From positions 64,001 to 128,000 of IMG/VR virus record IMGVR_UViG_3300011113_000123: 64,000 nt of DNA; one strand, given 5' to 3'. The position numbers were made by a program, and so were the translations under genes. Every line of letters starts with the position of its first letter. Within the stretch, counting starts at the first letter, position 1. Shown here piece by piece: positions 4,123 to 58,000 of the stretch. The stretch is from a virus. The notes under the pieces are model-generated. The model was not told where the DNA came from. It saw only the letters and a program-made list of their open reading frames with translations, and did not search any database.

Positions 4123-4331
4123 AGAAAAAGACTAAGAAACCCGCAAGGAAACCAACTCGCAACGATCTAGATAAGATGTCGTATGAAAAGCGAGAACGAG
4201 TAAGAAAACAGCTAAGAAAAGGGGCTGTATATACAAGAGCGTTCAAGACACCACAATCATTCGGTGCAGCCAGTCCAGTTAGACATGTTCCGATTGAAGA
4301 GTATTTGAAAGAAATCAAGAGTGATTCGTGA
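4119..4331 (+). CDS. small basic hypothetical protein
   Basis: overlaps gp43 stop (ATGA coupling). Confidence 0.6.
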   Translation: MKKKTKKPARKPTRNDLDKMSYEKRERVRKQLRKGAVYTRAFKTPQSFGAASPVRHVPIEEYLKEIKSDS

Positions 4332-5130
4332 AATCTTAGTGCATCAGGTAGATGCTATGTCTCACGACAGCCGCGTAGCTGTTCTACTATCAGGCGGAGT
4401 CGATAGTGTATCTATTGCGTTTGCTGCGCATCGGCTCGGAAAGAAGGTAGTCGCTTACACGTTTCATCTCGATGGTCAGCCATCATATGATTCGCAGAAA
4501 GCAGTCGAGATCGCAAAGATCATGGAATGGGATTATCGTGTCGTGGTAGTCCCAACCAATAACGTAGAGCAAGACTTCATTCGTTTGGCTAAAGAAGTTC
4601 ACTGCGAAAAGAAAACACACTTCGAGTGTTGCTTTCCGTTTCTATACGTGTACCCACAGATCAAGGAGTATGAAGTTCTAAGTGGATGGGCTGCTGACGG
4701 ATACTATGGTGTATCGAAAAAAGCGAACATTCACTACAAGCATACGAAGGAAAAGTTCGACGAGTTTCGTAAAGACTACTTTGGTGCTAACAATCGCGCT
4801 GGATATATGTGGCATAAACGAATCGCGGAGAAGTTGCATAGCAAACGATTCATTGCTCCGTATCTAGATCCAGACGTTGCTAAGTTCTTTATGAGCAAAG
4901 ATTGGTATGAACTGAATCAGCCATATCAAAAGCATCATGTAGTCGAAGCATTCACTGAGTTCAAGCAGATTGGTGGTGTGAAGAAACATATCAATCTGCA
5001 ACTAGGATCAGGAATAGATAAGCTATTCGAGAAAGAAGTATTGAGCAACACCAATCTTAATTTTTACAATCGCAAGCGAGTTATGGACGTATGTCGTGAC
5101 TGGGCAAACAAAGGAGCAGAGTTGTGGTAA
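4321..5130 (+). CDS. PP-loop ATP pyrophosphatase, asparagine-synthase C-terminal-like
   Basis: LLSGGVDS PP-loop, SGWAADGYYG, APYLD. Confidence 0.8.
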   Translation: MIREILVHQVDAMSHDSRVAVLLSGGVDSVSIAFAAHRLGKKVVAYTFHLDGQPSYDSQKAVEIAKIMEWDYRVVVVPTNNVEQDFIRLAKEVHCEKKTHFECCFPFLYVYPQIKEYEVLSGWAADGYYGVSKKANIHYKHTKEKFDEFRKDYFGANNRAGYMWHKRIAEKLHSKRFIAPYLDPDVAKFFMSKDWYELNQPYQKHHVVEAFTEFKQIGGVKKHINLQLGSGIDKLFEKEVLSNTNLNFYNRKRVMDVCRDWANKGAELW

Positions 5131-45099: not shown

Positions 45100-45576
45100 A
45101 TGATGAAAAACATGAATCTAGATGAAGTCCGCGAGTTCATTCGTAACACTTCTGACGAAACTTGCATCTATATCGGCGCTGACAGTGAACGCTATTGTGG
45201 AAAAAATAATCTGTGGTACGCCGACTACACGCTGGCTGTCGTGATTCACTACGACGGATCGCGCGGATGTAAGGTGTTTGGTAAGATGGAAACCGAACGC
45301 GACTATGATCAGCGTAAGGATCGTCCAGCTTATCGCTTAATGAACGAAGTGTATAAGGTTGCTCAGCTATACATGGATCTGGCTGAAGCGATTGGAGATA
45401 GACACGCTGAAGTTCATCTCGATATCAACCCTGATATTATCCACGGCAGCAGCTGCGTGGTGCAGCAAGCTGTCGGATACATTCGAGGAACGTGTAACGT
45501 TGTGCCTCGAGTGAAACCCGACGCTTTTGCTGCTTCTTATGCAGCTGATAGATTAAAGGAGATTCTTACCGCATGA
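45100..45576 (+). CDS. RNase H-like YkuK (DUF458) protein
   Basis: YIGADSE, RLMNEV, EVHLDIN, AASYAAD. Confidence 0.85.
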   Translation: MMKNMNLDEVREFIRNTSDETCIYIGADSERYCGKNNLWYADYTLAVVIHYDGSRGCKVFGKMETERDYDQRKDRPAYRLMNEVYKVAQLYMDLAEAIGDRHAEVHLDINPDIIHGSSCVVQQAVGYIRGTCNVVPRVKPDAFAASYAADRLKEILTA

Positions 45577-46163
45577 TTACGATAGAAAACTTCATCCTCC
45601 AATATGATAATCTTTTCTCAGCTCAGGAGTGCCAGCAGTTCATCGATTCATTCAATCGTATGGAGCGCGCTGGCTTCACGATCAGTCGTCAGAAAGAAGG
45701 AAATTCGTCGACTGTAAAGAAAGACGATCAGTTCTACTTCTCAGATTTCTTGTCTGGAATGGAACTGGATATATCTGACATAGCACCATTCAAGATGATG
45801 ACGGAGCGTTTCTGGAATAACGTATATCCAGCTTATGCTGAGCAGTATGGCGCTTTGAATCAAATGGCAAACATGACGGTTCGTTTGGCTAAGATTCAGA
45901 AGACTGAGATTGGTGGCGGATATCACATCTGGCACAATGAAGATGATACGCCACAAAACATGCGTCGCGTGGCTACGTTCATTCTGTATCTAAACGATGT
46001 GGATGAAGGCGGAGAGACGGAGTTCTTGTATTACCCAAAGCGAGTTAAGGCTAAAACTGGCAGATTCATTCTGTGGCCTGCTGGCTACACCCACACTCAT
46101 CGCGGCAATCCGCCAATCAGCAATACCAAATATATCGTCACTGGCTGGATGGAAATGACTTGA
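45573..46163 (+). CDS. 2OG-Fe(II) oxygenase
   Basis: WHNED, YLNDVDEGGETEF, HTHRGNPP, KYIVTGW. Confidence 0.9.
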   Translation: MITIENFILQYDNLFSAQECQQFIDSFNRMERAGFTISRQKEGNSSTVKKDDQFYFSDFLSGMELDISDIAPFKMMTERFWNNVYPAYAEQYGALNQMANMTVRLAKIQKTEIGGGYHIWHNEDDTPQNMRRVATFILYLNDVDEGGETEFLYYPKRVKAKTGRFILWPAGYTHTHRGNPPISNTKYIVTGWMEMT

Positions 46164-46188
46164 CAACCTGACCTTTTGTGCATATAAT
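46160..46188 (+). promoter_or_regulatory. perfect sigma70 promoter
   Basis: TTGACA-N17-TATAAT. Confidence 0.8.
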
Positions 46189-46213
46189 TGATATTGTCAT
46201 GAGGGGTCAGTAT

Positions 46214-46606
46214 ATGGCTATCTTACCAATCTACTACACCACTACCAACATGCGTAAGCGTAAGACTCGTAAGCCAACTCAGGCTATGATTGAGTCTCAG
46301 CGTAAGACACAAGAGTTGCTTGATCGTGTAGGCTATCGTAAGCCAACCAAAACGACTAAGAAATTCACATACTCACTCGAAGTAGAGTCTAATGCAGCTC
46401 CTATGTCTAACACCATTCCTGGTGGCATAGCTGCCAAGCGTGATAAGCTGAACGATCATAAATGGAAACGTGGTGCAGAAGAGTCTGCTGCTACTGTCAA
46501 AGCTATCGAGGATAAGGCTAAACGTCTTGCTCCTGCATTCAACAAAGGTGCAGTGCAATATATCACTGATGAAACTGATGCTAAGTATCTTGGGAGGAAG
46601 GTATGA
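46214..46606 (+). CDS. basic hypothetical protein
   Basis: GAGGGG RBS; APAFNKGAVQYI. Confidence 0.75.
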   Translation: MAILPIYYTTTNMRKRKTRKPTQAMIESQRKTQELLDRVGYRKPTKTTKKFTYSLEVESNAAPMSNTIPGGIAAKRDKLNDHKWKRGAEESAATVKAIEDKAKRLAPAFNKGAVQYITDETDAKYLGRKV

Positions 46607-46788
46607 ACTTGAAGTATCCAGCTCTATTTATTCTGCTTGCTGCTGGGTTAGGATTGATCAGCGTTGTCTATAAGATAGCGATAACGTTCTGGTCTGACGA
46701 TATGCTGCTAGTGTTCTGCGTTGGTTGTATGTTCGTGTCAGAATACCTGTCATGGATTAACTATTGGATGGAAAGGTACTGGAAATGA
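46603..46788 (+). CDS. small membrane protein
   Basis: two hydrophobic segments. Confidence 0.6.
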   Translation: MNLKYPALFILLAAGLGLISVVYKIAITFWSDDMLLVFCVGCMFVSEYLSWINYWMERYWK

Positions 46789-47033
46789 TTTTGACTAAGG
46801 AAGCGCTCGCTGAAATGCTTCGTGGTGATAAGCTGGAAGTATGTTTCACAAAGAAGGATGGCACCAATCGTGTTATGAACTGCACGTTGCAGGAAAACTT
46901 CCTACCTGTGTTTCAGGGTGCAGAAACTCGTAAGGAGAATCCCGAAGTGCTTGCTGTTTGGGATATAGATAATAATGGATGGCGTTCGTTTCGCCTCGAT
47001 TCTATTACTTCTGTGAGGATTGTTAATGACTAA
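46785..47033 (+). CDS. WYL-like/SH3 beta-barrel protein
   Basis: FTKKDGTNRVMNCT, VWDIDNNGWRSF. Confidence 0.8.
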   Translation: MILTKEALAEMLRGDKLEVCFTKKDGTNRVMNCTLQENFLPVFQGAETRKENPEVLAVWDIDNNGWRSFRLDSITSVRIVND

Positions 47034-48030
47034 ACTGAATATCGTCGGACTGAAAAACTCTGCAACCAAAGCTAAAGATATGGAGCCAGCAGAGAACGGA
47101 ACGTATGCTCATATTGGTTCCAAGGGTGGAACTGAGCAGATGTACGAAGGGCTCATGGCTCGACTACCTACAGAACTGACTGATAAGTTCAATATCATCT
47201 GCTCGCGCGTGCGCGAAGAAAATATCAGCAAGACTAAGAAGAATATCCTATGGCTCCACGACACATGGGATGATCCAGAGTCGCAGCACCTAAAGGATCG
47301 TAAAAGCCTTGACCGATTCGAGAAACTCGTATTCGTATCACACTATCAGCAATCTACTTACAATCTCGGGCTTGGAGTACCCTATGACAAGGGCGTCGTT
47401 ATCCAGAACGCGATCGTTCCTATCGAGCCTCATGAGAAGCCGCAGGGATCGACAATCAACCTTATCTATCATACCACTCCACATCGCGGACTGGAACTTC
47501 TGATTCCTGTATGCGAGTTCCTTGCTGATAAGGGATTAGACTTCCATCTCGACGTATATTCGTCGTTCAGTATCTATGGATGGCCTGATAGAGACGCTCA
47601 GTTCCAAAGCGTATTCGAGCGTATCAAGAATCATCCTAAGATGACGTATCATGGCTTCCAGCCAAACTCCGTTATCCGCGAAGCTCTGAAGAAGGCGCAC
47701 GTATACACGTATCCGTCGATTTGGCCTGAGACTTCTGGTATCTCAGTGATCGAGGCTATGAGCGCTGGCTGTAACGTTATCTGCCCAACGCTGGCTGCGT
47801 TACCTGAGACTACAGCCAACTTCGCGGTTCAGTATGGCTGGACTGAGGATAATAACAAGCACGCCAATATGTTCGCTGGCATCCTAGCCATGGTTATCCA
47901 GCAGTATCGTAGCCAATTCAACCAAGAGCGGCTCAAGTTCCAGAAAGCCTACTTTGATTCGTTCTACAATTGGGATACTAGAGCTAGACAGTGGCAGGAC
48001 TTCCTAACCTCCCTGAATAGGGGCCCTTGA
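47026..48030 (+). CDS. GT4-like glycosyltransferase
   Basis: GGTEQ, YHTTPHRGL, YPSIWPETSGISVIEAMSAG. Confidence 0.88.
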   Translation: MTKLNIVGLKNSATKAKDMEPAENGTYAHIGSKGGTEQMYEGLMARLPTELTDKFNIICSRVREENISKTKKNILWLHDTWDDPESQHLKDRKSLDRFEKLVFVSHYQQSTYNLGLGVPYDKGVVIQNAIVPIEPHEKPQGSTINLIYHTTPHRGLELLIPVCEFLADKGLDFHLDVYSSFSIYGWPDRDAQFQSVFERIKNHPKMTYHGFQPNSVIREALKKAHVYTYPSIWPETSGISVIEAMSAGCNVICPTLAALPETTANFAVQYGWTEDNNKHANMFAGILAMVIQQYRSQFNQERLKFQKAYFDSFYNWDTRARQWQDFLTSLNRGP

Positions 48031-48055
48031 CAATTACCCTGCCGCGTGGTATGAT
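48027..48055 (+). promoter_or_regulatory. sigma70 promoter
   Basis: TTGACA-N17-TATGAT. Confidence 0.8.
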
Positions 48056-48078
48056 AGATATAGTGAGAGGAGTGATTC

Positions 48079-49224
48079 ATGGCTAAGAGCTTACTCAAGT
48101 CTGCGCCCATCAAGAAGAAACGTACTATCACGCCACGCGGTTTCGACGCCAAGCATATGGGCGACGAGCCTTCTTGGGAAAATCAGTTTCTCGTAGATGA
48201 TGACGAGCGTCAGTCGATGCTCGGTCGTGCATACAATTGGTACAACTATTTCTACGAGGCTAAGACTGGGCGCAAGTGGCTCGTCGAGTATATGACAGAG
48301 CAGGGTATGTCCAAGGCTGCTATGTCGATGACCAATCGCGTGTCAGACGCGAAACTCAGCTCGACGATGTGTAATACTGCGCGCATGCTGTCGATGGGTC
48401 TGGAAGACAAGAAGCTTCAAGAGAAGCTGAACAACTATCTCGTCACTCTCGTCGAGCAGGGAGTTGCTATCGCTAAAGCTGAAAAGGCTGCGGCTGCTAA
48501 GGTAGCTCCCGCATATGAAAAGAATCCTGCGGCTGATCTTATCGCTACCATCGAAGAGATGATCGACCACGATCCCGACGAGGAATGGCGCAATTCTTTC
48601 TATAGCTGGCTCAAAGATACGAAGCAGGTCAAGCCGACTCAGGCTCGTGCGATCGCTGACTACTATCGCCCGTGGCTTGAAGAGCTGCGCGAAGTGGCTA
48701 CGACCAAAGACGCTGAACTCAAGTATGCGTATCGTCATCTGAATAAGAAAAAGCTCAAGGAACGTATCGCGCTGTTCACTGGCATCGTCAACGATTGCGA
48801 GTCTCTGGTATCCAATAGTCGTAAGACTGTCGCGCGCAAGCCGCGTAAAACTAAGCCTAAGACGGCTGACAAGATCGTATCCAAGATTAAGTTCCAGAAG
48901 GAAGATACCAATCTTAAGATCGTTTCTGTTGATCCTACAAAGATCGTAGGCTCTACTGAGCTCTGGGTGTTCAATACTAAGTACAACGTCCTTGCTCATT
49001 ATGTTGCTGGCGCTGGTGGGCTTTCCATGAAAGGCACTACGCTCCAGAACGTGAGCGATACATCCAAACAGAAGAAGCTGCGTAAGCCCGCAGATATTCT
49101 GCCTAAGATCACTGGCAGCACGGCTAAGGCTGCTGAACGTACATTCACTTCAATCAAGACTAAGGAAAGCGACCCTAATGGGCGAATCAACGAATACTGC
49201 ATCATCCTTCGCGCAGTCAAGTAA
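48079..49224 (+). CDS. conserved T4-like hypothetical protein
   Basis: AYNWYNYFY, LWVFNTKY, KKLRKP, NGRINE. Confidence 0.8.
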   Translation: MAKSLLKSAPIKKKRTITPRGFDAKHMGDEPSWENQFLVDDDERQSMLGRAYNWYNYFYEAKTGRKWLVEYMTEQGMSKAAMSMTNRVSDAKLSSTMCNTARMLSMGLEDKKLQEKLNNYLVTLVEQGVAIAKAEKAAAAKVAPAYEKNPAADLIATIEEMIDHDPDEEWRNSFYSWLKDTKQVKPTQARAIADYYRPWLEELREVATTKDAELKYAYRHLNKKKLKERIALFTGIVNDCESLVSNSRKTVARKPRKTKPKTADKIVSKIKFQKEDTNLKIVSVDPTKIVGSTELWVFNTKYNVLAHYVAGAGGLSMKGTTLQNVSDTSKQKKLRKPADILPKITGSTAKAAERTFTSIKTKESDPNGRINEYCIILRAVK

Positions 49225-49549
49225 TGTTCTGCGCTTTCCTAAGAAAAGCATAAGAACTATCCTACCAGATGAAGATCAAGAAGCTCGTGATGCGGCGCGT
49301 CGTTTGTATGTTGATGAGGTGGTAGAGTCATATGCTTCTCATTTGGCTAACAAGTTGGCTCAGCAAGGTTTCGATGTGTTCCATGATGCGTTCGACAAGC
49401 ATTTTGGCTTTACGATGGAAGCCTTTAGGTCTACGTTGCTTTTGACGATGGAACTGGATCATCCGTTCCAGGAGATCGTCGAGCAAACGGTACAGACGAT
49501 TAAGGATGTTCGCCCAATTGAAGTCGAAGACGATTTCGATCCAGCTTGA
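49178..49549 (+). CDS. hypothetical protein
   Basis: ORF filling the gap. Confidence 0.6.
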   Translation: MGESTNTASSFAQSSNVLRFPKKSIRTILPDEDQEARDAARRLYVDEVVESYASHLANKLAQQGFDVFHDAFDKHFGFTMEAFRSTLLLTMELDHPFQEIVEQTVQTIKDVRPIEVEDDFDPA

Positions 49550-49574
49550 CAACCACGCATAGATAGTATATGAT
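49546..49574 (+). promoter_or_regulatory. sigma70 promoter heading the rnh-to-TET/TAGT gene run
   Basis: TTGACA-N17-TATGAT. Confidence 0.75.
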
Positions 49575-49597
49575 ACTATCATGCAATGGAGTTCGTT

Positions 49598-50461
49598 ATG
49601 ATTCTCGTAGATTTTAGCCAGGTCATGATTTCTAACATCATGATGCAGCTAGCCAACAATGAGAGCAAGCTCGAAGAGGATATGGTTCGCCATATGGTTC
49701 TATCGAGTCTGCGTCTATACAAGCGCAAGTTTGGCGCTGAGTACGGCGAGATTGTTATCTGTGCCGACGGTCCTTCGTACTGGCGTCGTGAGATCTATCC
49801 TCACTACAAGGCTGGTCGTCGTAAGGCTCGTGACAAGTCGCAGCATGACTGGTCGCTGATCTTCAATGCACTGCATAAGATCCGTGATGAGATCGCTGAC
49901 AATATGCCTTATCCTGTTCTGCGTTTCGAGCGTGCGGAAGCTGACGACATCATCGGTGCTCTGTGTCACCAGTTTGGTATGCACGGCATGCTCACTGATC
50001 CCAAGATCCTTATCATCTCAGGTGACAAGGACTTCGCTCAGCTGCAGAAGTATGATAACGTCCAGCAGTATAGCCCTATCACTAAGAAGTTCATCGTGCC
50101 TGATGTGAATCCTGAGCGATTCAAGCAGTATCATATCCTGCAAGGTGACGTTGGTGACGGCGTACCTAACTTCTTATCGGCTGACGATACGTTCGTATCT
50201 GGTGGTCGTCAGAAGCCTCTTCCCAAGAAAAAGCTCGAAGAGTGGACGCTGATGAATCCAGAAGAGTTCTGTCAGGGTGAAATGTTGCGCAATTATCACA
50301 GAAACAAAATGATGGTCGATCTTGATTGCATTCCTGACGATCTACAGAAAGAAATCGTATCTGCGTATGCTACATACAATCGTAATCCACGCAGCAAGAT
50401 CTTCAACTACTTCATCGAACATCGCCTGCGTCAACTAACTGAAGCCATCTCGGAGTTCTGA
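49598..50461 (+). CDS. rnh: T4 RNase H (5'-3' exonuclease)
   Basis: ILVDFSQ, YWRR..YK..R, EADDII, SGDKDFAQL, GDVGDGVPN. Confidence 0.95.
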   Translation: MILVDFSQVMISNIMMQLANNESKLEEDMVRHMVLSSLRLYKRKFGAEYGEIVICADGPSYWRREIYPHYKAGRRKARDKSQHDWSLIFNALHKIRDEIADNMPYPVLRFERAEADDIIGALCHQFGMHGMLTDPKILIISGDKDFAQLQKYDNVQQYSPITKKFIVPDVNPERFKQYHILQGDVGDGVPNFLSADDTFVSGGRQKPLPKKKLEEWTLMNPEEFCQGEMLRNYHRNKMMVDLDCIPDDLQKEIVSAYATYNRNPRSKIFNYFIEHRLRQLTEAISEF

Positions 50462-50462
50462 T

Positions 50463-50660
50463 ATGACTAGCTTTATGATCGCTGTTCAAATATGTCTGAC
50501 GCTACTGGTTACTGGCGGCATGACTTATCTCATGATTAAGAACGTCGTCGTCGAAGACGTAAAGAACGTCACTCAGTATCAGAAATTCGTGGCTGTGTTG
50601 CTTCTTATCCACGCCGTCCTCGGTCCTATCGCCCTCATCAATCTTATCTGGAGTTACTAA
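50463..50660 (+). CDS. small membrane protein
   Basis: two TM segments. Confidence 0.6.
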   Translation: MTSFMIAVQICLTLLVTGGMTYLMIKNVVVEDVKNVTQYQKFVAVLLLIHAVLGPIALINLIWSY

Positions 50661-51079
50661 TGATCGATCTGAATAAGTATGCAGAATTCGTCATGGCTGT
50701 TACGAGCAAGGAAAGCCGCGAAACGCAGGTTTTCATTGACAGGATGAAGGAACTCCAGTATCATGATGAAGATAGCAGGAGCAAGCTCAATCTGTCGTTG
50801 CTGATTACTGCTATGATTGGGCTTACCAGCGAGGCTGGTGAAGCGCAAGAGATTCTCAAGAAGGTTCTGTTTCAGGGTAAGCCGTTCACTGAAGATACTC
50901 GTCAGCATCTCAAGAAGGAGCTTGGTGATGTGATTTGGTACTGGATCAATGCTTGTAATGCTCTTCAGCTCGATCCCAATGAAGTCGTGGCTGAAAACGT
51001 GAAGAAGCTCGAAGCTCGCTATCCTGGCGGCAAGTTCGATGCGTACTACTCCGAAAATCGTAAAGAAGGCGATATCTAA
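50660..51079 (+). CDS. MazG-like nucleotide pyrophosphohydrolase
   Basis: SEAGEAQE, KELGDVIWY, NVKKLEARYP. Confidence 0.9.
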   Translation: MIDLNKYAEFVMAVTSKESRETQVFIDRMKELQYHDEDSRSKLNLSLLITAMIGLTSEAGEAQEILKKVLFQGKPFTEDTRQHLKKELGDVIWYWINACNALQLDPNEVVAENVKKLEARYPGGKFDAYYSENRKEGDI

Positions 51080-51387
51080 TGTCCAAGCTCGTTATGGTCG
51101 ACGTTCTTTCTTCGTTTCGTTTGCGCTACGTAGTTCGTGCAAACACTGTTGAAGACGCGCTCGATGAAGTTGTGATGCGCGAAAACGATGCTGACTTCAA
51201 GGAGTTCAGTCAGAAGCACCTCGAACCAACAGCGATCATCGATCATCGCGAAATCACTGAAGAGGAGTATCTTCAGATCTTCAGTGAAGACAACGACTAT
51301 CTGAAGACCTGGACGGACGAGCAGAAGAGGAATTATATCAACGTGATTGACTATTACGAACAGAAGGAGAATAAACATGGCGCTTGA
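51079..51387 (+). CDS. hypothetical protein
   Basis: coupled ORF. Confidence 0.7.
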   Translation: MSKLVMVDVLSSFRLRYVVRANTVEDALDEVVMRENDADFKEFSQKHLEPTAIIDHREITEEEYLQIFSEDNDYLKTWTDEQKRNYINVIDYYEQKENKHGA

Positions 51388-51940
51388 TACCAATAAGTGC
51401 ATGGCAAATATCGTATCGAAGATTGAAGCACAGACTACCGTCGAAAAGCAGGTTGAGTTTCTTCAGTTGCATAGTTCATATGCTTTGAAGGCTGTACTGG
51501 GTTATGGTATGGATCCGAACGTGAAGTGGTTGCTTCCTGATGGTGATCCGCCGTATCGCGGTTTGTTTGACGCTTCTGACCAGGAAGGTCGTTTCTATGT
51601 CGAGTGCAAGAAGCTGATCTATTTCGTTGATAGTGAAGAAGGTCGTCAGGTTAAGCAGATCAAGCGTGAACAGTTGTTCATCCAGGTGCTTGAGTCTATT
51701 GATGCTCGCGACGCGAAGCTGCTTCTTCGCATGAAGAATCGTCAGATCAATATCAAGCCCGAAGCTATCGCTCAGGCGTTCCCTAACATGTGGGAAGCGT
51801 GGGGTCGTACTGTTGCGAAGCCGGTCGTGATCCAGGAGGTAGCTCCTCAGGAAACTCCTTTTCGTACCGAAGAAGCAGAAGTTCCTGTCAAGCGTGGTCG
51901 CGGGCGCCCTAAGGGTTCTACTAAGAAGGAAGTAGCATGA
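51377..51940 (+). CDS. conserved T4-like protein with C-terminal AT-hook
   Basis: WLLPDGDPPY, KREQLFIQVLES; KRGRGRPKGS. Confidence 0.75.
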   Translation: MALDTNKCMANIVSKIEAQTTVEKQVEFLQLHSSYALKAVLGYGMDPNVKWLLPDGDPPYRGLFDASDQEGRFYVECKKLIYFVDSEEGRQVKQIKREQLFIQVLESIDARDAKLLLRMKNRQINIKPEAIAQAFPNMWEAWGRTVAKPVVIQEVAPQETPFRTEEAEVPVKRGRGRPKGSTKKEVA

Positions 51941-52515
51941 ACACCGCCTTTATCATTGGTAACGGAACGAGTCGCTCTGACTTCGACCTAAAGAGGCTCA
52001 AGCCTTATGGAACGATCTATGGATGTAATGCGCTTTATCGTGATTTCCCTGATCACTCTATTCCTGACTTCCTCGTTGCTATTGATGACGGTATTATTGC
52101 AGAGATAGAATTCAGTAGGTTCCCGTCTAATCGTTTCATCGTTCCACCGATTGATGAGCGCTGGGAACCTTCTGAGTGTAACATCGGTCGCCCTCGTAGC
52201 AACGCTGGTATGAATGCTATGCGTGAGGCTATCAAGGCTGGGCATAATCAGCTGATCTGTCTTGGGTTTGACTTCCTCATTGGTGGTAAGAATCAGTTCT
52301 TGTCGAATCTGTATGACGGCACCGAGAACTATGGTCCAGACACTCGCGCGAGCGCGGGAGACAATCCTGGTCGTGTCAACTATCTTCAGTGGTTGGTACG
52401 TAAGCATCCAGACGTTGACTTTATCTTTATCTATCCAGATATCGAAAATGTGACAGTGATTAACGGCGATAATGTCTATTACAACACATTTGAAAAACTC
52501 TTGAAACATACATAG
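51937..52515 (+). CDS. glycosyltransferase-like Rossmann protein
   Basis: IIGNGTSR, YGCNALYRD, LGFD, NLYDGT. Confidence 0.65.
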   Translation: MNTAFIIGNGTSRSDFDLKRLKPYGTIYGCNALYRDFPDHSIPDFLVAIDDGIIAEIEFSRFPSNRFIVPPIDERWEPSECNIGRPRSNAGMNAMREAIKAGHNQLICLGFDFLIGGKNQFLSNLYDGTENYGPDTRASAGDNPGRVNYLQWLVRKHPDVDFIFIYPDIENVTVINGDNVYYNTFEKLLKHT

Positions 52516-52544
52516 CATCGTAGAAATTAAAGAAGGAGAGTGCT

Positions 52545-53954
52545 ATGGTTAAGAAAATCTATCTTGAACATTCAGATCGAAACAAGATGGATCACTTGTT
52601 GGGTAAGTTCCTCGATCACGACTGCTATGATCTAGTGCTCACCGAGGATACCGATGTTTACGAACCACTGACTCAGTTGCAGATTGACCAGGGCGAAACA
52701 CACAGCGAAAAGAATCTGCTATGTAAGTTCCGTAAAGGTGTGTTCAGCAAAGAAATGACGGACGCGGCATATAAGGCGCTGCGTTCTGGTGCCATCATGT
52801 CAGACAATCGTGGTCTTGCTGCTGGTATCTTTCGCGACACAGCATATCAGAAGCTGCCTGACGGCGAAGGTTCTCGTCGTTGGGTTACAGAGCGCGAGAG
52901 AGCTGTCCTTCAGTATATGTTGAAGGATTCTCCTAAGACTGTTAATGAAGAAGATCAGTTAGAAGAGATCTATAAGAGTAATCCAGACACTCCTCTTCAG
53001 GGGCGCGGTTCTGGAGCGCATAAAGCTAAGGGTGATATTGGCGCAGGTGCTATCTGGATTGTTAACAAGTCGAAAGACTTTGTTTTCGATGACTGGTACA
53101 ACTCTGTAAAAGATAAGAGCCCGGCTGAGCGTCGTATGGCTGCGGATCATATTCTCAATGATCTAATCTCAGACACGACTTATGCTAACGGTGTTCGCTC
53201 AGGCGTTGGTGGCTTCATGGATCGTTATCCGCGTATTCCGTTCTGTCGCGAGACAGGTTGGAGTGCGAGCCATCATAAGCTATACGAAGCTGCGCTTCCG
53301 TTGTTTGAACAGGCTTCGAAAGTGTTCGAGGAAAATCTACCAGTGCGCTTTGCTGGTCAGATGGAAGCTATGAAGCAGCTTGGTCCAGATTGGCAAATCG
53401 GTAACACGCCATACACTACTCTAACCATCAATCGCGACTTCCGCACAGCTGCTCATCGCGACGTTGGTGATCTGTGTGAGTCGTGGGAGTCTCATGCAAA
53501 TCCACGCGGCTTCTCGAATCTGCTAGTATTAGACAACGGAAAGAGCTATAATGGATTCTATCTTTGCTTCCCTGAGTTTCGTGTAGCGGCTGATATTCGT
53601 GCTGGCGATATGATTATGATGAACGCACATCGTATTCATAGCAACAGCCCAGCCTTCGACTACGAAGAAGGCTTCGAGCGTATGTCAGTTGTGATGTACT
53701 TCCGCGAGTCTATGCTGGAGTGTGGTAGCCGTAAGTATGAAGATACACGTCGCAGCTTCGTGTACATGCGCGCGAACAACAAAGAACATCCTTTGTGGAA
53801 AGAAGGATGGAATGGTGTATCGCCTGGAATGTGGGATACTGAAGAATGGGGTGAGTACCTCGGAAACAATGGTCTCACTGACGAAGCAGAAGAAGTCCTA
53901 AGTAAGATTGGTAAGAGTGATCGATTAGTAACTCTCGAAGATTACTTTGCATAA
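52545..53954 (+). CDS. TET/JBP-family 2OG-Fe(II) nucleic-acid dioxygenase
   Basis: TTLTINRDFRTAAHRD (HxD), IHSN, ERMSVVMYFRE; CRETGW. Confidence 0.88.
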   Translation: MVKKIYLEHSDRNKMDHLLGKFLDHDCYDLVLTEDTDVYEPLTQLQIDQGETHSEKNLLCKFRKGVFSKEMTDAAYKALRSGAIMSDNRGLAAGIFRDTAYQKLPDGEGSRRWVTERERAVLQYMLKDSPKTVNEEDQLEEIYKSNPDTPLQGRGSGAHKAKGDIGAGAIWIVNKSKDFVFDDWYNSVKDKSPAERRMAADHILNDLISDTTYANGVRSGVGGFMDRYPRIPFCRETGWSASHHKLYEAALPLFEQASKVFEENLPVRFAGQMEAMKQLGPDWQIGNTPYTTLTINRDFRTAAHRDVGDLCESWESHANPRGFSNLLVLDNGKSYNGFYLCFPEFRVAADIRAGDMIMMNAHRIHSNSPAFDYEEGFERMSVVMYFRESMLECGSRKYEDTRRSFVYMRANNKEHPLWKEGWNGVSPGMWDTEEWGEYLGNNGLTDEAEEVLSKIGKSDRLVTLEDYFA

Positions 53955-53969
53955 ATCAAGAGGTCGTTA

Positions 53970-55532
53970 ATGTATTGCGTGATTCCTGCGGCAGGGCGCG
54001 GTGTTCGTTTCAACGAACTAGGTAAGAACTATCCGAAGTGCGTCCTGCCATATAAAGATATTCCAATCATCGTTCATAACATTAGACTGGCTCTCGATTC
54101 GGGAGCCAGAGAAGTTTCTATAGTCGTCGGTCATCAGGGTGATAAGATTCGTGAGATCGTCGGAATGTACTTTCCGGAAGATCCGCGCATCATCTTCTCG
54201 GAGTATCAAGAAACAGCCTCAATAGGTGGTCCTGGCGTTTCAATCTACTGCGGTATCCCTGATGACATCGGTGATGAGTCTGTCCTGATTCTTCTTTCCG
54301 ATATCGTCGTAGAACATGTTTTGATTAACAATTCTAAAACATCCTGGATTTCTGTTCAGCAAGTTCCTGATTGGGAACGCTGGTGTATGGCTGAGACTAA
54401 AGATGGAACAATCGTAAAGTTCCACGATAAGCCGCGCGATATGCCTCCGACTAGTCATGCGGTCAGCGGAGTCTATTACTTTAGAAACGCATCGTTGTTC
54501 CGTAGTTGTTTGATTGATGCTATCAAAGATACTCGTTATGGCGAAGTTCAGATTTCTTCAGCGATGTCGCGCTATATGGAAAAGGAATCTATCTATACGA
54601 AGCCAATCAGGATCGTCGATTTCGGTACGTTGCAAGAGTATCTCGAGAATCGTGGTGTAAAGAACTCGCGTTCGTTCAATACGCTCTATCATTCTGGTGA
54701 TGAAACTACGATCACGAAAACATCTGTTGCTCATCCAGAAAAGATTCATGCGGAAGCTAACTGGTACGACAATCTTCCGACGCCTATCAAGATGATGACA
54801 CCTCGCATCTTTGATAAGACGTTGTATGGTGATCGACCAATGTATACGATGGAGCGTATCGACAGCCCTACGTTGCGTGAGCTATATCTGTATCTCGAAT
54901 CTGATCCTATCTTCTGGGCTGAAATCTTTACGAAACTCTTTGATCTAACCGACAAGTTCAAGTTCTACACGAAGCCTGGTAAGCCAGAGTTCTTCGATCG
55001 TGTCGTAGACAAGACGTTCTCGAGATTCACAGAAGTCGATGCTGATCTCATAGAGAACGACGATCATGCGTTCATGAACAAGTTCTATGAAATGAATCAG
55101 CAGGGTATGTTCAACGTATTCCCTGACTCCCTGTTCCATGGCGACTTCTGCTTCTCTAACATCTTCTATCATCCAGGCAGCAAGCATATCAAGTTCATCG
55201 ATCCGCGCGGCGACGCGTATGGTAACATCTTGTATGACTTGGCTAAGATCACACATTCAGCATACTACCCATACGATTATGTTGATGCGGAACTCTATCT
55301 AAATAAGAGTGGCGAAAAGCTATACATCTTCGATAGTGGCAAAGAAGTCGCTCGCGAAGCGTACAAGAAGCTCTTCGTTGCCAAATACGGTGAGTCAACG
55401 TGGCAGATCAATTTGTTCTTGACAGCTACTCTGTTTTTGAGTATGATTCCCTTACACTCACACAATAAGGTCAACCAAGAGTTATTCTATGCGCTCTATC
55501 GTAAGGCGGCCGCAGACAGCGGATTTGTTTGA
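53970..55532 (+). CDS. sugar-phosphate nucleotidyltransferase fused to APH/choline-kinase-like domain
   Basis: IPAAGRGVRF...PK, DFGT; HGDFCFSNI, IDPRG, YDLAK. Confidence 0.9.
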   Translation: MYCVIPAAGRGVRFNELGKNYPKCVLPYKDIPIIVHNIRLALDSGAREVSIVVGHQGDKIREIVGMYFPEDPRIIFSEYQETASIGGPGVSIYCGIPDDIGDESVLILLSDIVVEHVLINNSKTSWISVQQVPDWERWCMAETKDGTIVKFHDKPRDMPPTSHAVSGVYYFRNASLFRSCLIDAIKDTRYGEVQISSAMSRYMEKESIYTKPIRIVDFGTLQEYLENRGVKNSRSFNTLYHSGDETTITKTSVAHPEKIHAEANWYDNLPTPIKMMTPRIFDKTLYGDRPMYTMERIDSPTLRELYLYLESDPIFWAEIFTKLFDLTDKFKFYTKPGKPEFFDRVVDKTFSRFTEVDADLIENDDHAFMNKFYEMNQQGMFNVFPDSLFHGDFCFSNIFYHPGSKHIKFIDPRGDAYGNILYDLAKITHSAYYPYDYVDAELYLNKSGEKLYIFDSGKEVAREAYKKLFVAKYGESTWQINLFLTATLFLSMIPLHSHNKVNQELFYALYRKAAADSGFV

Positions 55533-55881
55533 ACTTAGCCTCGTGGTTGATCTGGACCACACACTATGCGTTGGCGATCTTAGTATAGCGAGTTCAGCTG
55601 AACGATACGCCAACGCAAAGCCAATTGCAGAAACAATCAAGAAATTACAAGAAGCGTACAGTAACGGCTGGTACATCACCATTCTTACTGCACGTCATAT
55701 GCGTTCTTGTCAAAACGATGCAGAGTTTGCGTTCGAGAAGCTAGGTAAGATCACTGAAGACTGGCTTGATCGACACGACGTTCCCTTCGATCAGCTTGTC
55801 TTTGGTAAGCCATATGGTATGTGGTACATCGACGATAAAGCAATGACACTGGATACCTTCCTACATGAATTCCAAGCCTAA
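55525..55881 (+). CDS. small HAD phosphatase (capsule-biosynthesis phosphatase type)
   Basis: DLDHT, TAR, FGKP, YIDDKA; probable TTG start. Confidence 0.85.
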   Translation: MFELSLVVDLDHTLCVGDLSIASSAERYANAKPIAETIKKLQEAYSNGWYITILTARHMRSCQNDAEFAFEKLGKITEDWLDRHDVPFDQLVFGKPYGMWYIDDKAMTLDTFLHEFQA

Positions 55882-56695
55882 GATTATCATCACTACGTTC
55901 ATGCGCGAGGACAAGCAGAAAGCTGTGTTCCAGATTCCTGCTTCGCTGCATGAAAACGTTTATATGTTCACTCGCGAAGATCGCGTCGATGAGCTGCGTA
56001 AGTATGTTCCCGAAACGATTCGCATCATCGGTAATCCGATGGATATCGACGGTATCGCTGATATCCGTCAGCGTTGTATCGATCATGTTCCGAAGGGTAA
56101 GGTGTGGTTCATCGACGATCTCGCTACGTTTGGTTGGCGCGATCAGAATCTAAAGCAGTTCAACGATATGCCCGAGCAGAAGTTCGTTGAGATGTATGCC
56201 ACGCTCGACAAAATGCTCGACGACTATATGCAAGTCGGTTTCTCAGCTCGTGGTGGCAACAATCACGTGACTGATCCGTTCAAGGAAGTTGGTCGTGCAT
56301 ACACCACATATGGATTGCGCTCAGACTGGATGGAGCGTGAGGATATTCGATTCGATGGTATGTATCGACAGAATCCTAACGTGAAGCTCTACGAAGACTA
56401 CTGGATCACGCTCTCCATGCTGACCAAGGGTTTCAAGAACGCTATCATCTACGACTATTTCTTCAACTACACTCACAACAACACAGGCGGCAATTCTACG
56501 TTCCGTACGCTAGAACTCCAGGAGCAAGCCGCTCACGAACTCCATAGACACTTCCCACAATTCGTCACAGTAGAAACGAAGGAAGGGGTATGGGGAAAGA
56601 TGGGCATGGAGAATCGTAAGGAAGTTCGCATTCAATGGCAGAAAGCATATCAAAGCTCACAGGTCACTAACACGCTCGACTCGTTCTTCGAATAA
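55865..56695 (+). CDS. TET-associated (TAGT-like) GT-A glycosyltransferase
   Basis: GIADIRQ, FIDD, YEDY, GGNSTFR, KEVRIQWQKAY; in an operon with TET/JBP. Confidence 0.8.
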   Translation: MNSKPKIIITTFMREDKQKAVFQIPASLHENVYMFTREDRVDELRKYVPETIRIIGNPMDIDGIADIRQRCIDHVPKGKVWFIDDLATFGWRDQNLKQFNDMPEQKFVEMYATLDKMLDDYMQVGFSARGGNNHVTDPFKEVGRAYTTYGLRSDWMEREDIRFDGMYRQNPNVKLYEDYWITLSMLTKGFKNAIIYDYFFNYTHNNTGGNSTFRTLELQEQAAHELHRHFPQFVTVETKEGVWGKMGMENRKEVRIQWQKAYQSSQVTNTLDSFFE

Positions 56696-56706
56696 CAGGA
56701 AATCCT

Positions 56707-57159
56707 ATGAACACCGGAATAGGCTATGTCGAATATCGTAATCTGTTTGAGGGCATCCGTAGAGAAAAGCCAGGAGACGAAAGATATCTAATCTACTTCG
56801 GTCGAGCCCATGTTCAAGATCACATAACTAAAGTTGTTTCTAGGGGCCCACTGAAGATTGGTCGAGGAAAGTTCGCAACTGCTCTGATGCGCGGGAGGAA
56901 TCAGCCTGGAGTAGACTTTCGCATATATTCAGAAATCATCGTTCCTTACAATCAAGACACATACGATTGTGAACAACTGATAAAGTCTGTTCTGAAACAT
57001 CGTAACATGAAGATGTCGCAGAACCAGCAGGAACTTTATGATATCAGAGACGAAGAGCTCGAACAAACAGTCAGCGCGATAGTTGAAATCATAAAGGCAG
57101 AAATGCCTGACATCAAGCTGCTGGAAGTTAACAACTACTTTCTAAAAAAGGAAACCTAA
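56707..57159 (+). CDS. hypothetical protein, possible GIY-YIG/T5orf172-like nuclease
   Basis: YLIYF...LKIGRG...R...CEQ...ELY spacing. Confidence 0.45.
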   Translation: MNTGIGYVEYRNLFEGIRREKPGDERYLIYFGRAHVQDHITKVVSRGPLKIGRGKFATALMRGRNQPGVDFRIYSEIIVPYNQDTYDCEQLIKSVLKHRNMKMSQNQQELYDIRDEELEQTVSAIVEIIKAEMPDIKLLEVNNYFLKKET

Positions 57160-57533
57160 TGGACACTCTCATGACCGCAGTGCAAATCGTGATTGCCCTT
57201 GGTATCGGTTACTTCGTAGGTAAGATACTCGCAGGATTCGTTAGCGCATATTTTGCAAAGAACGAAGAACCTGTTATGATTGGAAGTGTGTCTGGTGATG
57301 ACGTACTGGATTTCGATAAGAGCGAAGTCCCGTTCATTCCTGTTCGTATCATTAAAGAGCACAACCAGTATTACGCTTGGTTCTCTGTGAACGAAAAGTT
57401 CATTGGTCAGGCGACTACCATCGAAGAGATCCATAAAGCGGCTTATGAGCAGGTTCTCAGGCAGATGGGGCTTCGGTGCGTGTTCACCCAGGAAAAGATC
57501 AAGGCTAAGCCCAAGACGAAAAAAGGGCCTTGA
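57159..57533 (+). CDS. membrane-anchored hypothetical protein
   Basis: N-terminal TM. Confidence 0.7.
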   Translation: MDTLMTAVQIVIALGIGYFVGKILAGFVSAYFAKNEEPVMIGSVSGDDVLDFDKSEVPFIPVRIIKEHNQYYAWFSVNEKFIGQATTIEEIHKAAYEQVLRQMGLRCVFTQEKIKAKPKTKKGP

Positions 57534-57558
57534 CAATTAATCCATAGTCAGCTACAAT
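57530..57558 (+). promoter_or_regulatory. early sigma70 promoter
   Basis: TTGACA-N17-TACAAT. Confidence 0.8.
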
Positions 57559-57584
57559 TAAGAGTTAGCTATGGAGAAACGTAA

Positions 57585-57869
57585 ATGTCAAAAGTAAACG
57601 CGCTAGTTTCCAAGTATAACGCCCCTAAAGCTAAGTATAAGGGTGGTGTAGCTAAGTTCGATCCTAGTAAAAAATGGGTCGAATATAGCTTAGATTTAAT
57701 CGAAGCCAAGCGTTTACTTCAAGTCGCTGATTTTACTACTAAATTCGACCTAGTAAAAGTAATAAATCAAATCGAGAATAAAGTAAAGTTCCACGAAAAT
57801 CATGTAGATTTTGATTTCAATTCTGCGCTAAGAAACTTACGTTTAGCTCGCAAATTGTTACGTATGTAA
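57585..57869 (+). CDS. basic hypothetical early protein with skewed composition
   Basis: GGAG RBS; TA-rich, TG/CA-poor. Confidence 0.7.
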   Translation: MSKVNALVSKYNAPKAKYKGGVAKFDPSKKWVEYSLDLIEAKRLLQVADFTTKFDLVKVINQIENKVKFHENHVDFDFNSALRNLRLARKLLRM

Positions 57870-57950
57870 CGAATTTTGATACAAAAAAGATCAAAAAACT
57901 TTCCCTAGTGAAATCAGTGACTTACGTATAAGCTACTGATTTTGCTAGGG
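57866..57950 (+). repeat. A-tract + IHF-consensus element, copy 2, within an inverted repeat
   Basis: AATCAGTGACTTA (57912-57924) facing TAAGCTACTGATT (57929-57941), flanked by CCCTAG/CTAGGG. Confidence 0.75.
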
Positions 57951-57971
57951 TTTTTTCTTAGGGTAGCGCCA

Positions 57972-58000
57972 TTGACAATCAGCCAGGAACCCCGTAGAAT
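57972..58000 (+). promoter_or_regulatory. early sigma70 promoter
   Basis: TTGACA-N17-TAGAAT. Confidence 0.8.

Follow-up and report, generated by a model that had tools for sequence, protein, structure and literature searches.

A candidate thymine hypermodification cassette pairs a long-form TET dioxygenase with phage sugar-nucleotide genes in a T4-like virus

Introduction

What does a T4-like aquatic virus make with a TET/JBP dioxygenase whose gene is followed by genes for sugar activation and a glycosyltransferase (GT), and which base does this enzyme oxidize when no cytosine-C5 methyltransferase (C5-MTase) is encoded beside it? The question is raised by a stretch of DNA of 64,000 nucleotides, hereafter the window, which corresponds to bases 64001 to 128000 of virus record IMGVR_UViG_3300011113_000123; coordinates are those of the window unless marked as genome coordinates. 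The whole record is linear, 157,580 bp long and approximately 90% complete.

We consider it fairly probable that the cassette serves the post-replicative hypermodification of thymine, which would be oxidized and then receive a sugar made by the phage. In the first step, a long-form TET, held on new DNA by a sliding-clamp-binding tail, would hydroxylate thymine to 5-hydroxymethyluracil (5hmU). In the second, the kinase domain of a fusion protein would make a sugar bisphosphate, a HAD phosphatase would take off the distal phosphate, and the transferase domain of the fusion would activate the sugar-1-phosphate to a nucleoside diphosphate (NDP)-sugar. This reaction logic has been shown for homologues; the sugar would be D-arabinofuranose obtained from host arabinose-5-phosphate, or alternatively a heptose. 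Finally, the TET-associated glycosyltransferase (TAGT), which carries the same type of tail, would put the sugar on the hydroxymethyl group to yield a glycosyl-5hmU resembling base J. Cytosine would be handled separately by a CmoA/CmoX pair, predicted to make 5-carboxymethylcytosine.

Organization of the cassette and its dioxygenase

The dioxygenase gene (52545-53954, + strand) encodes a protein of 469 residues that matches PF12851 over residues 234 to 388 with 52 bits, for a cut-off of 34.9. A six-frame search of the genome gave 54.2 bits for this gene and revealed no second Tet_JBP gene. Its TET-type jelly-roll fold carries the HxD...H iron ligands and the Arg that binds 2-oxoglutarate, and residues H304, D306, H362, H365, R379 and S381 do not vary among 24 homologues with 41 to 82% identity. 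Its AlphaFold 2 (AF2) model (pLDDT 79.7) retrieved CcTet (1e-8), NgTET1 (1e-6) and TET2 (3e-6) in Foldseek searches. Relative to short TETs, this long form has an insert of approximately 110 residues at the "variable insertion" (vi) position defined for 5mYOX enzymes by O'Toole et al. (PNAS 2026, PMC13229309), as well as a C-terminal extension of approximately 70 residues. We rejected the possibility that its N-terminal 230 residues form a separate domain, because short TETs carry the same N-terminal motifs and the extra length is accounted for by the insert and the extension.

Three genes follow on the same strand. The first (53970-55532) codes for a 520-residue fusion of the AfhE type, with an N-terminal NTP_transferase domain (PF00483) and a C-terminal APH-like kinase domain (PF01636). 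Next come a HAD-IIIA phosphatase gene of the AfhF type (55489-55881; TIGR01689, E 9e-18) and the TAGT gene (55865-56695; PF20691, phrog_842). Upstream of the TET gene lie ORF192 (51937-52515, + strand), assigned to the Maf/CstII (GT42/DUF115-like) fold on fold evidence, and the gene of a DUF6433 protein (PF20025, E 8e-21), whose open reading frame (ORF) opens with a TTG at 51347, probably starts at the ATG at 51377 and ends at 51940. From DUF6433 to TAGT, all genes are on the + strand and each abuts or overlaps the next. An initial annotation of the window had described contiguous genes for a GT-like protein, a TET/JBP dioxygenase, an NTP-transferase/kinase, a HAD and a TAGT downstream of rnh and mazG. 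All five are present where it had placed them, but the unit that it had delimited at 51937-56695 must be extended, as the conserved unit begins one gene earlier, at DUF6433. A megablast search with the cassette found no match among annotated phages; relatives were found at the protein level.

Substrate of the dioxygenase

The nearest named relatives of the TET belong to T4-like phages, in which they are annotated as "SNF2 DNA repair protein": Stenotrophomonas phage DLP_6 (37% identity), phage C48C1 (34%), Caulobacter phage Cr30 (33%) and Synechococcus phage S-CBWM1 (28%). To place the enzyme, we used as clade proxies the gene contexts of three short reference TETs, rather than the published sequences of clades A to D. 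Melnitz gp6 is encoded directly 3' of a C5-MTase, HTVC112P gp18 directly 3' of a ParB-like gene, and P12024L gp26 next to neither; they are 25%, 39 to 40% and 34% identical, respectively, to the catalytic domain of our TET. IMG/VR was scanned with each TET, and the neighbors were scored by iterated profiles. A C5-MTase adjoins the TET gene in 63 of 72 Melnitz-type loci versus none of 111 long-form loci, and a ParB gene in 30 of 36 HTVC112P-type loci, again versus none of the 111; thus, no cognate ParB-like activator gene adjoins a long-form TET in this set. In a maximum-likelihood tree of 39 representatives (414 columns), the MTase-coupled TETs are split from all others by a branch of length 2.69 with support of 100/100, and the long forms make up a clade (95/87) beside the ParB-linked and P12024L types. 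With clades approximated by context, the long-form TETs therefore have both traits of thymine-type enzymes, namely no neighboring C5-MTase and a grouping apart from the MTase-coupled enzymes. The long-form TET is probably a thymine dioxygenase, predicted from these comparisons to convert T to 5hmU.

The initial annotation had stated that phage TETs usually work with a neighboring C5-MTase. This view is out of date, as a C5-MTase accompanies only 6% of 5mYOX pathways; most lack one and probably make 5hmU, and GT, APH and HAD are among the families that co-occur with them (PMC13229309).

An alternative is the classical cytosine route, in which 5-methylcytosine (5mC), made by a distant C5-MTase homologue with S-adenosylmethionine (SAM) or by a Dcm-like host enzyme, would be oxidized to 5-hydroxymethylcytosine (5hmC) by the TET before glycosylation, on the pattern of the MT/TET/GT clusters of Burke 2021 (PMC8256090) and Pyle 2023 (bioRxiv 10.1101/2023.12.21.572611). 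All phage TET-plus-GT products shown experimentally so far are built on 5hmC, and T-type 5mYOXs are also able to oxidize 5mC. The route requires a source of 5mC, and the initial annotation had proposed to search the rest of the genome for MTase or thymidylate-synthase paralogues. The window has no C5-MTase, as that annotation had observed, and the genome as a whole has no thymidylate-synthase-family gene that could act as a pre-replicative hydroxymethylase, which extends its remark that no dCMP hydroxymethylase was visible. A single PF00145 gene was found, outside the window (genome 50950-52089) and 65 kb upstream of the TET gene.

This PF00145 gene is most similar, over its full length, to SpCmoX (PDB 8YF3; E 9e-104, 350 bits), the next match being M.HaeIII with 74 bits. 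It keeps the SPPC motif ("gsppc") and has an Arg ("igRmv") at the position of R350 of SpCmoX, in place of Asn304 of M.HhaI. Its stop codon is overlapped by a gene for a CmoA homologue (4iwn and 4gek, approximately 1e-17; TIGR00740, 6e-23), so that the two form a translationally coupled pair at genome 50950-52769 (locus L001:1441-3260). SpCmoX takes only carboxy-SAM, refusing SAM, and makes 5-carboxymethylcytosine at GC sites (2025, PMC12783734). By sequence, the PF00145 gene is a CmoX orthologue, and by analogy its product should make 5-carboxymethylcytosine rather than 5mC. Thus, no active SAM-dependent C5-MTase that could supply 5mC adjoins the TET gene, and, with CmoX as the sole PF00145 gene and no thymidylate-synthase-family gene, the gene content of this phage offers no evident way to 5mC or to a pre-replicative hydroxymethyl pyrimidine. 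The pair is also distributed independently of the TET: a block of gp46-like, deformylase, CmoX and CmoA genes is kept in relatives, and it occurs without Tet_JBP in the 100%-complete 155-kb genome G038.

The converse situation was found in other TET-bearing genomes. No PF00145 gene was found in the complete genomes of DLP_6, Cr30, C48C1 and S-CBWM1. Of 36 further IMG/VR records with a TET gene, 35 likewise lack it, among them G023 and G024, which are 100% complete and have terminal repeats. Two of these six complete genomes have the same sugar genes: the gene order is TAGT-HAD-fusion-TET in DLP_6 and TET-TAGT-HAD-nucleotidyltransferase-kinase in S-CBWM1, the same enzyme set as in our phage. 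As PF00303 is also absent from both, thymine is, judging by gene content, the sole 5-methylpyrimidine that DLP_6 and S-CBWM1 themselves can offer to the TET. A literature search for DNA modification in DLP_6, Cr30 or S-CBWM1 found nothing.

Several points weigh against thymine as the substrate. The base, like the sugar, is inferred from homology, gene context and phyletic pattern. The fold and the clade are compatible with a 5mC substrate, because published phage T-dioxygenases oxidize 5mC in vitro too. The genome itself, as well as genomes G001 and G011, keeps a C5-MTase-family gene, whose nearest relatives outside this lineage (approximately 42% identity) are MTases directly beside 5mC-type TETs. 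Since the record is linear and 90% complete, a gene could be missing from it, and host methylation may be a source of 5mC. However, the CmoX assignment, the TET genomes devoid of PF00145, the distance in the tree to the MTase-coupled TETs and the modules described below all argue against the cytosine route, which we regard as distinctly unlikely.

Action of the TET on 5-carboxymethylcytosine was also considered and set aside: this base was introduced as a TET-resistant one. Besides the CmoX/CmoA pair, an ORF with an asparagine-synthase domain (PF00733, E 5e-15) was noticed at 4324-4785 (genome 68324-68785), within an open frame of 273 residues just 3' of the DNA polymerase gene; possible identities are a CmoY-like amide ligase extending 5-carboxymethylcytosine and an unrelated PP-loop enzyme.

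Exchangeable modules behind the dioxygenase

The genes found behind orthologous TETs provide a second view of the substrate. In relatives L011 to L013 and L060, whose TETs are 79% identical to ours and lie in the same slot behind the same DUF6433-ORF192 core, the sugar genes are replaced by a 257-residue ORF, a gene for an amino-acid:DNA transferase (AADT; PF18724, E 1e-20) and a P-loop nucleotide kinase gene (PF18751, E 5e-12). In relatives L005 and L006, the module consists of an SDR epimerase/dehydratase and one or two TAGTs. In the 73 long-form loci that extend 3 kb or more downstream of the TET gene, the adjoining module is AADT and/or kinase in 35, fusion/HAD/TAGT in 18, SDR with or without TAGT in 7 and TAGT only in 4, none being recognized in the remaining 9.

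AADT and the P-loop kinase act on 5hmU in every characterized case, and Lee et al. inferred thymine oxidation for TET_JBP contigs from the missing 5mC gene (NAR 2021/22, PMC8989533). The complete genomes G023 and G024 encode TET, AADT and kinase but neither a C5-MTase nor a thymidylate-synthase homologue; from this gene set, the TET must supply the 5hmU. The initial annotation had raised thymine as a possible substrate, and this suggestion is strengthened by the absence of a 5mC source, the MTase-free relatives, the tree and gene contexts, and the AADT/kinase modules.

Origin of the sugar

Of the two domains of the fusion, the N-terminal one resembles RmlA/GalU/MurU and the C-terminal one has the motifs of APH kinases; the latter gave no sequence-level match among PDB sequences. 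Full-length homologues are encoded by DLP_6, by Enterococcus phages, where they lie beside a thymidylate-synthase homologue, and by T4-like enterobacterial phages. The fusion is 22% identical over approximately 430 residues, spanning both domains, to a protein of Serratia phage LC53 (E 2e-14), with which it shares HGD..N and FIDPRG. In LC53, this gene is located between an arabinose-5-phosphate isomerase and a small "capsule biosynthesis" HAD, which is itself 31% identical to the HAD of the cassette (E 9e-13). The best PDB match of the cassette HAD is 1xpj (E 7e-14), also the top match listed for the AfhF analogues DLP3 gp81 and RB69 gp51 (NAR 2026, PMC13326640). In the same study, LC53 is listed as carrying arabinosylated 5-hydroxycytosine, and AfhE was found to phosphorylate arabinose-5-phosphate at C1, AfhF to remove the 5-phosphate, and AfhE then to make UDP-arabinofuranose. 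The cassette thus has the AfhE/AfhF arrangement in the gene order of LC53, a bifunctional nucleotidyltransferase-kinase followed by a small HAD. By analogy, we infer that the donor sugar is D-arabinofuranose, with a heptose as the alternative. The expectation of the initial annotation that the phage makes a non-glucose sugar is favored by the homology of the sugar genes to the UDP-arabinofuranose pair.

Some observations speak against arabinose. The 90%-complete genome gave no match to an arabinose-5-phosphate isomerase (SIS, PF01380), which RB69, DLP3 and LC53 possess, and the sugar phosphate must therefore come from the host. Because the fusion is only 22% identical to that of LC53, the sugar may also differ from arabinose. 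A phage set made of a HAD/APH bifunctional enzyme, a cytidylyltransferase and a GT, all of them needed, produced heptose and di-heptose on 5hmC in E. coli (Pyle 2023, bioRxiv 10.1101/2023.12.21.572611). Thymine might thus be glycosylated from an NDP-heptose or another non-pentose donor, as the kinase-phosphatase-nucleotidyltransferase logic also applies to heptose activation and the HAD resembles GmhB-type phosphatases. We nevertheless think this variant unlikely: an NTP_transferase-APH fusion with a separate 1xpj-like HAD is the arrangement of AfhE/AfhF, unlike the HAD-APH fusion and cytidylyltransferase of contig 53 in that study, and the direct sequence matches are to phages with reported arabinosylated bases, such as LC53.

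Two observations were made in phages that encode fusion homologues. In LC53 (L247:8838-9877), a gene with a chorismate-mutase domain adjoins the thymidylate-synthase homologue in the arabinosylation region, in which no CmoA was seen; chorismate mutase makes prephenate, a co-substrate of CmoA-type enzymes. Enterococcus phage 9183 (L248:3412-7845) has the closest fusion homologue outside T4-like phages (30% identity over the full length), in a cluster of genes for thymidylate kinase, thymidylate-synthase homologue, dUTPase, HAD, fusion and a 406-residue ORF, which suggests, from gene content, a glycosylated pyrimidine made before replication in these Enterococcus phages.

Glycosyltransferase and clamp-type tails

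The TAGT is a marginal match to PF20691 (29.4 bits for a cut-off of 27.5) and a clear one to phrog_842 (E 1e-43), with no meaningful match among PDB sequences. It is encoded in the same cassette as the TET, two genes downstream, and its homologues lie beside or near TET genes in DLP_6, S-CBWM1 and many metagenomic loci. In a TAGT tree, those of MTase-coupled TETs form one clade (SH-aLRT 94), and a separate clade unites that of the cassette with those of DLP_6 and a ParB-linked locus, which lends modest support to thymine as the substrate.

The TAGT and the TET have a further feature in common. A C-terminal tail of the type [ST]L[ED]x[FY]F occurs in 4 of the 207 ORFs of the genome. One is the gp43-like DNA polymerase (1603-4122, + strand, 839 residues; phmmer against the Melnitz polymerase, E 1e-281), whose tail ...SSLEDFFS served as the reference. 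The others are the TET (...LVTLEDYFA, residues 458 to 469, 53916-53951, + strand), the TAGT (...NTLDSFFE, 56669-56692) and a 186-residue protein (...TLEEFLEIA) encoded right after the sliding-clamp gene (genome 60878-61438; locus L299:878-1438). The latter is not the gp55 homologue, which was found at genome 46932-47474. Among relatives, TET, TAGT and AADT homologues bear the tail, and none of the fusion, HAD, kinase, ORF192 or DUF6433 proteins does.

We modeled the phage clamp trimer with residues 395 to 469 of the TET. Residues 458 to 469 were placed on the clamp with a score of 0.64, compared with 0.02 for the best control; the runs shared at least 76% of contacts, and the pLDDT of the partner was at least 81. 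In calibration, 58 of 80 solved complexes attained the mark used for such models, as did 2 of 110 mismatched pairs. Because the clamp-peptide complex of a T4-like polymerase is already solved, the model indicates that the TET tail resembles clamp-binding peptides, a likeness and not proof of binding by the TET. Clamp-type tails suggest how "post-replicative" enzymes may reach all new DNA.

These features bear on another alternative, according to which the sugar genes and the TAGT act on a protein or on the host envelope, and the TET alone makes a sparse mark of an epigenetic type. Phage GTs and NDP-sugar genes often serve targets other than DNA, a separate GT1-family gene lies 4 kb upstream, and the published T-dioxygenases act in sequence-specific contexts and on only a fraction of thymines. 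However, association with TET is what defines the TAGT family, and TAGT genes abut those of TETs in many unrelated phages with differing gene orders. The TAGT of the cassette shares the clamp-type tail with the TET and the polymerase, while the fusion and the HAD have none, and its slot is taken by DNA-acting AADT/kinase modules in relatives. We therefore hold a non-DNA target to be highly improbable and retain glycosylation of oxidized thymine as our reading.

The conserved upstream genes

DUF6433 and ORF192 are located directly 5' of the TET gene in all 53 loci of the subclade. This includes 36 of 36 close relatives, with TETs 72 to 87% identical to ours, in which DUF6433-ORF192-TET occupies the same slot. 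The DUF6433 protein ends in a basic tail with an AT-hook-like RGRGRPKG sequence, and the AT-hook core is present in 23 of 53 homologues.

The initial annotation had called ORF192 GT-like, and its predicted structure agrees. The AF2 model (pLDDT 88) matches the Maf glycosyltransferase 5mu5 (VIA; Z 11.9, root mean square deviation 3.5, 161 residues aligned) and the sialyltransferase CstII (1ro7; Z 10.3, 175 residues), followed by thiamin and hydroxymethylpterin pyrophosphokinases of the same superfold (Z 8 to 9). The Maf/CstII fold is shared down to the N-terminal nucleotide-binding GNG motif, and the first 36 residues match CstII at E 0.017. The catalytic general base of CstII is a His, H188; no His is invariant among 20 homologues of ORF192. 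We rejected the possibility that ORF192 is a ParB-like activator, as it has a different fold and no similarity to the ParB of HTVC112P. ORF192 accompanies the TET whichever module lies downstream, which makes a place in the sugar branch less likely than a role as a general partner in oxidation or as an extra transferase common to these loci. An accessory role or one in DNA targeting is conceivable for both DUF6433 and ORF192; alternatively, ORF192 is a candidate second transferase.

Transcription

The cassette is preceded by genes for a T4-type RNase H (rnh, 49586-50461) and MazG (50660-51079). No terminator-like site of note was found between the cassette genes. A sigma-70-type promoter-like site lies upstream of rnh (49546-49574, + strand), and a near-consensus one, TTGACA-17 nt-TATGAT with 11 of 12 matches, lies inside the 3' end of the fusion gene, immediately 5' of HAD and TAGT (55419-55447, + strand); both are consensus matches only. 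The absence of a notable terminator and the promoter-like sites before rnh and HAD indicate, from sequence features, that the cassette is part of a longer early-type transcription region and not the stand-alone operon that the initial annotation had called self-contained. The T4 late-promoter word TATAAATA is absent from the cassette.

Five + strand sites that have an intact TTGACA and agree with the consensus at 11 of 12 positions occur within 9 kb, at 49546, 50736, 55419, 57530 and 57972. In the 49546-58000 interval, 19 promoter-like sites were counted in total, for 14.4 expected from shuffled sequences.

Relation to known systems

The cassette resembles the phage thymine dioxygenase pathways of the 5mYOX C1/C2 type (PMC13229309) in that it has no adjacent C5-MTase and has GT, APH-like and HAD neighbors. 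The catalytic core of its TET is closest to the ParB-linked (39 to 40% identity) and P12024L-type (34%) enzymes, versus 25% for the MTase-coupled one. In contrast with the C1/C2 enzymes, of approximately 290 to 300 residues, it is 469 residues long because of the insert, the extension and the clamp-type tail. Instead of the ParB partner of ParB-linked 5mYOXs, the DUF6433 and Maf/CstII-like pair stands upstream. No long T4-like form could be identified among the enzymes assayed in that paper.

The MT/5mYOX/GT clusters (Burke 2021, PMC8256090; Pyle 2023) likewise rely on a hydroxymethyl acceptor made after replication, a donor prepared by phage kinase, phosphatase and nucleotidyltransferase, and a GT that transfers onto DNA. 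In contig 53 (Pyle 2023, bioRxiv 10.1101/2023.12.21.572611), HAD/APH, cytidylyltransferase and GT lead to heptosyl-5hmC. Our cassette differs from these clusters by the lack of a SAM-type C5-MTase, by a TET from another clade, by a predicted 5hmU acceptor and by a GT of the TAGT family, whereas theirs are T4-beta-GT-like GT-B enzymes. It differs from contig 53 by a nucleotidyltransferase-kinase fusion with a free HAD, in place of a HAD-kinase fusion with a free cytidylyltransferase.

With the AfhE/AfhF phages (RB69, DLP3, HY126 and LC53; PMC13326640), the cassette shares the bifunctional architecture and the small 1xpj-like HAD directly downstream. In those phages, however, the acceptor 5-hydroxy-dCMP is made before replication by a thymidylate-synthase homologue, the arabinosyltransferases are GT-B enzymes, and an arabinose-5-phosphate isomerase is encoded, whereas our phage has a TAGT as its GT, encodes no isomerase and would obtain its acceptor through the TET. 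Base J synthesis in kinetoplastids (JBP1/2 and JGT) follows the same order, a TET/JBP enzyme oxidizing DNA thymine to 5hmU before O-glycosylation. There, glucose is drawn from the cellular UDP-glucose pool, and approximately 1% of T is modified; here, the donor would be made by the phage, and both DNA-acting enzymes have clamp-type tails. Finally, the TETs of L011 to L013 and L060, which are orthologous to ours, lie in clusters like the TET_JBP, 5-HMUDK and AADT contigs of PMC8989533, in which an AADT/kinase module stands where our genome has the sugar module.

Phage thymine dioxygenases, their GT, APH and HAD neighbors, DNA GTs with phage-made donors and the arabinose activation pair have thus already been published between 2021 and 2026. 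As far as the accessible parts of those papers go, they contain neither a demonstrated phage glycosyl-5hmU nor an AfhE/AfhF-type pair coupled to a TET, nor a long clamp-tailed TET with DUF6433 and Maf-like partners, nor the exchange of three modules behind one orthologous TET. The initial annotation had expected a probably undescribed base. The predicted glycosyl-5hmU has indeed not yet been described, but the novelty was overrated, because this type of pathway has been published.

A more far-reaching version of our proposal, which we put forward tentatively and consider rather doubtful as a whole, is that a clamp-tethered TET and GT make an undescribed arabinofuranosyl- or other non-glucose glycosyl-5hmU at the replication fork. 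CmoA/CmoX would also carboxymethylate cytosine, so that thymine and cytosine would each be hypermodified after replication, by two systems independent of each other. The position behind the TET would then act as an exchangeable socket for sugar, epimerase-sugar and amino-acid modules, which would diversify the thymine adduct among near-identical phages.

If the proposed pathway is correct, phages build a base related to base J from a sugar of their own synthesis, a new natural DNA base, and 5hmU would be a new acceptor for the recently found arabinose-activation enzymes. Three modules that alternate behind one orthologous dioxygenase would represent a natural experiment on DNA camouflage against restriction and other DNA-targeting defenses. 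The chemistry is directly testable, since the same set of enzymes is encoded by two relatives in culture, Stenotrophomonas phage DLP_6 and Synechococcus phage S-CBWM1. New DNA glycosyltransferases and a thymine dioxygenase for labeling or sequencing chemistry are a possible practical yield.

Neighboring genes

Directly 3' of the TAGT gene, an ORF of 150 codons (56707-57159) has a weak match to T5orf172 (GIY-YIG-like, E 0.003), below the cut-off, and no counterpart in any of the 36 loci compared; a mobile endonuclease bordering the exchangeable module is one possibility. The region 5' of rnh (43529-49549) begins with a radical SAM protein gene (43529-45097), followed by genes for an RNase-H-like protein and a 2-oxoglutarate-Fe(II) oxygenase (45573-46163). 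It also contains the GT1-family glycosyltransferase gene (47020-48030) and a 381-residue ORF that belongs to no family, and these two are kept in relatives irrespective of the module behind the TET.

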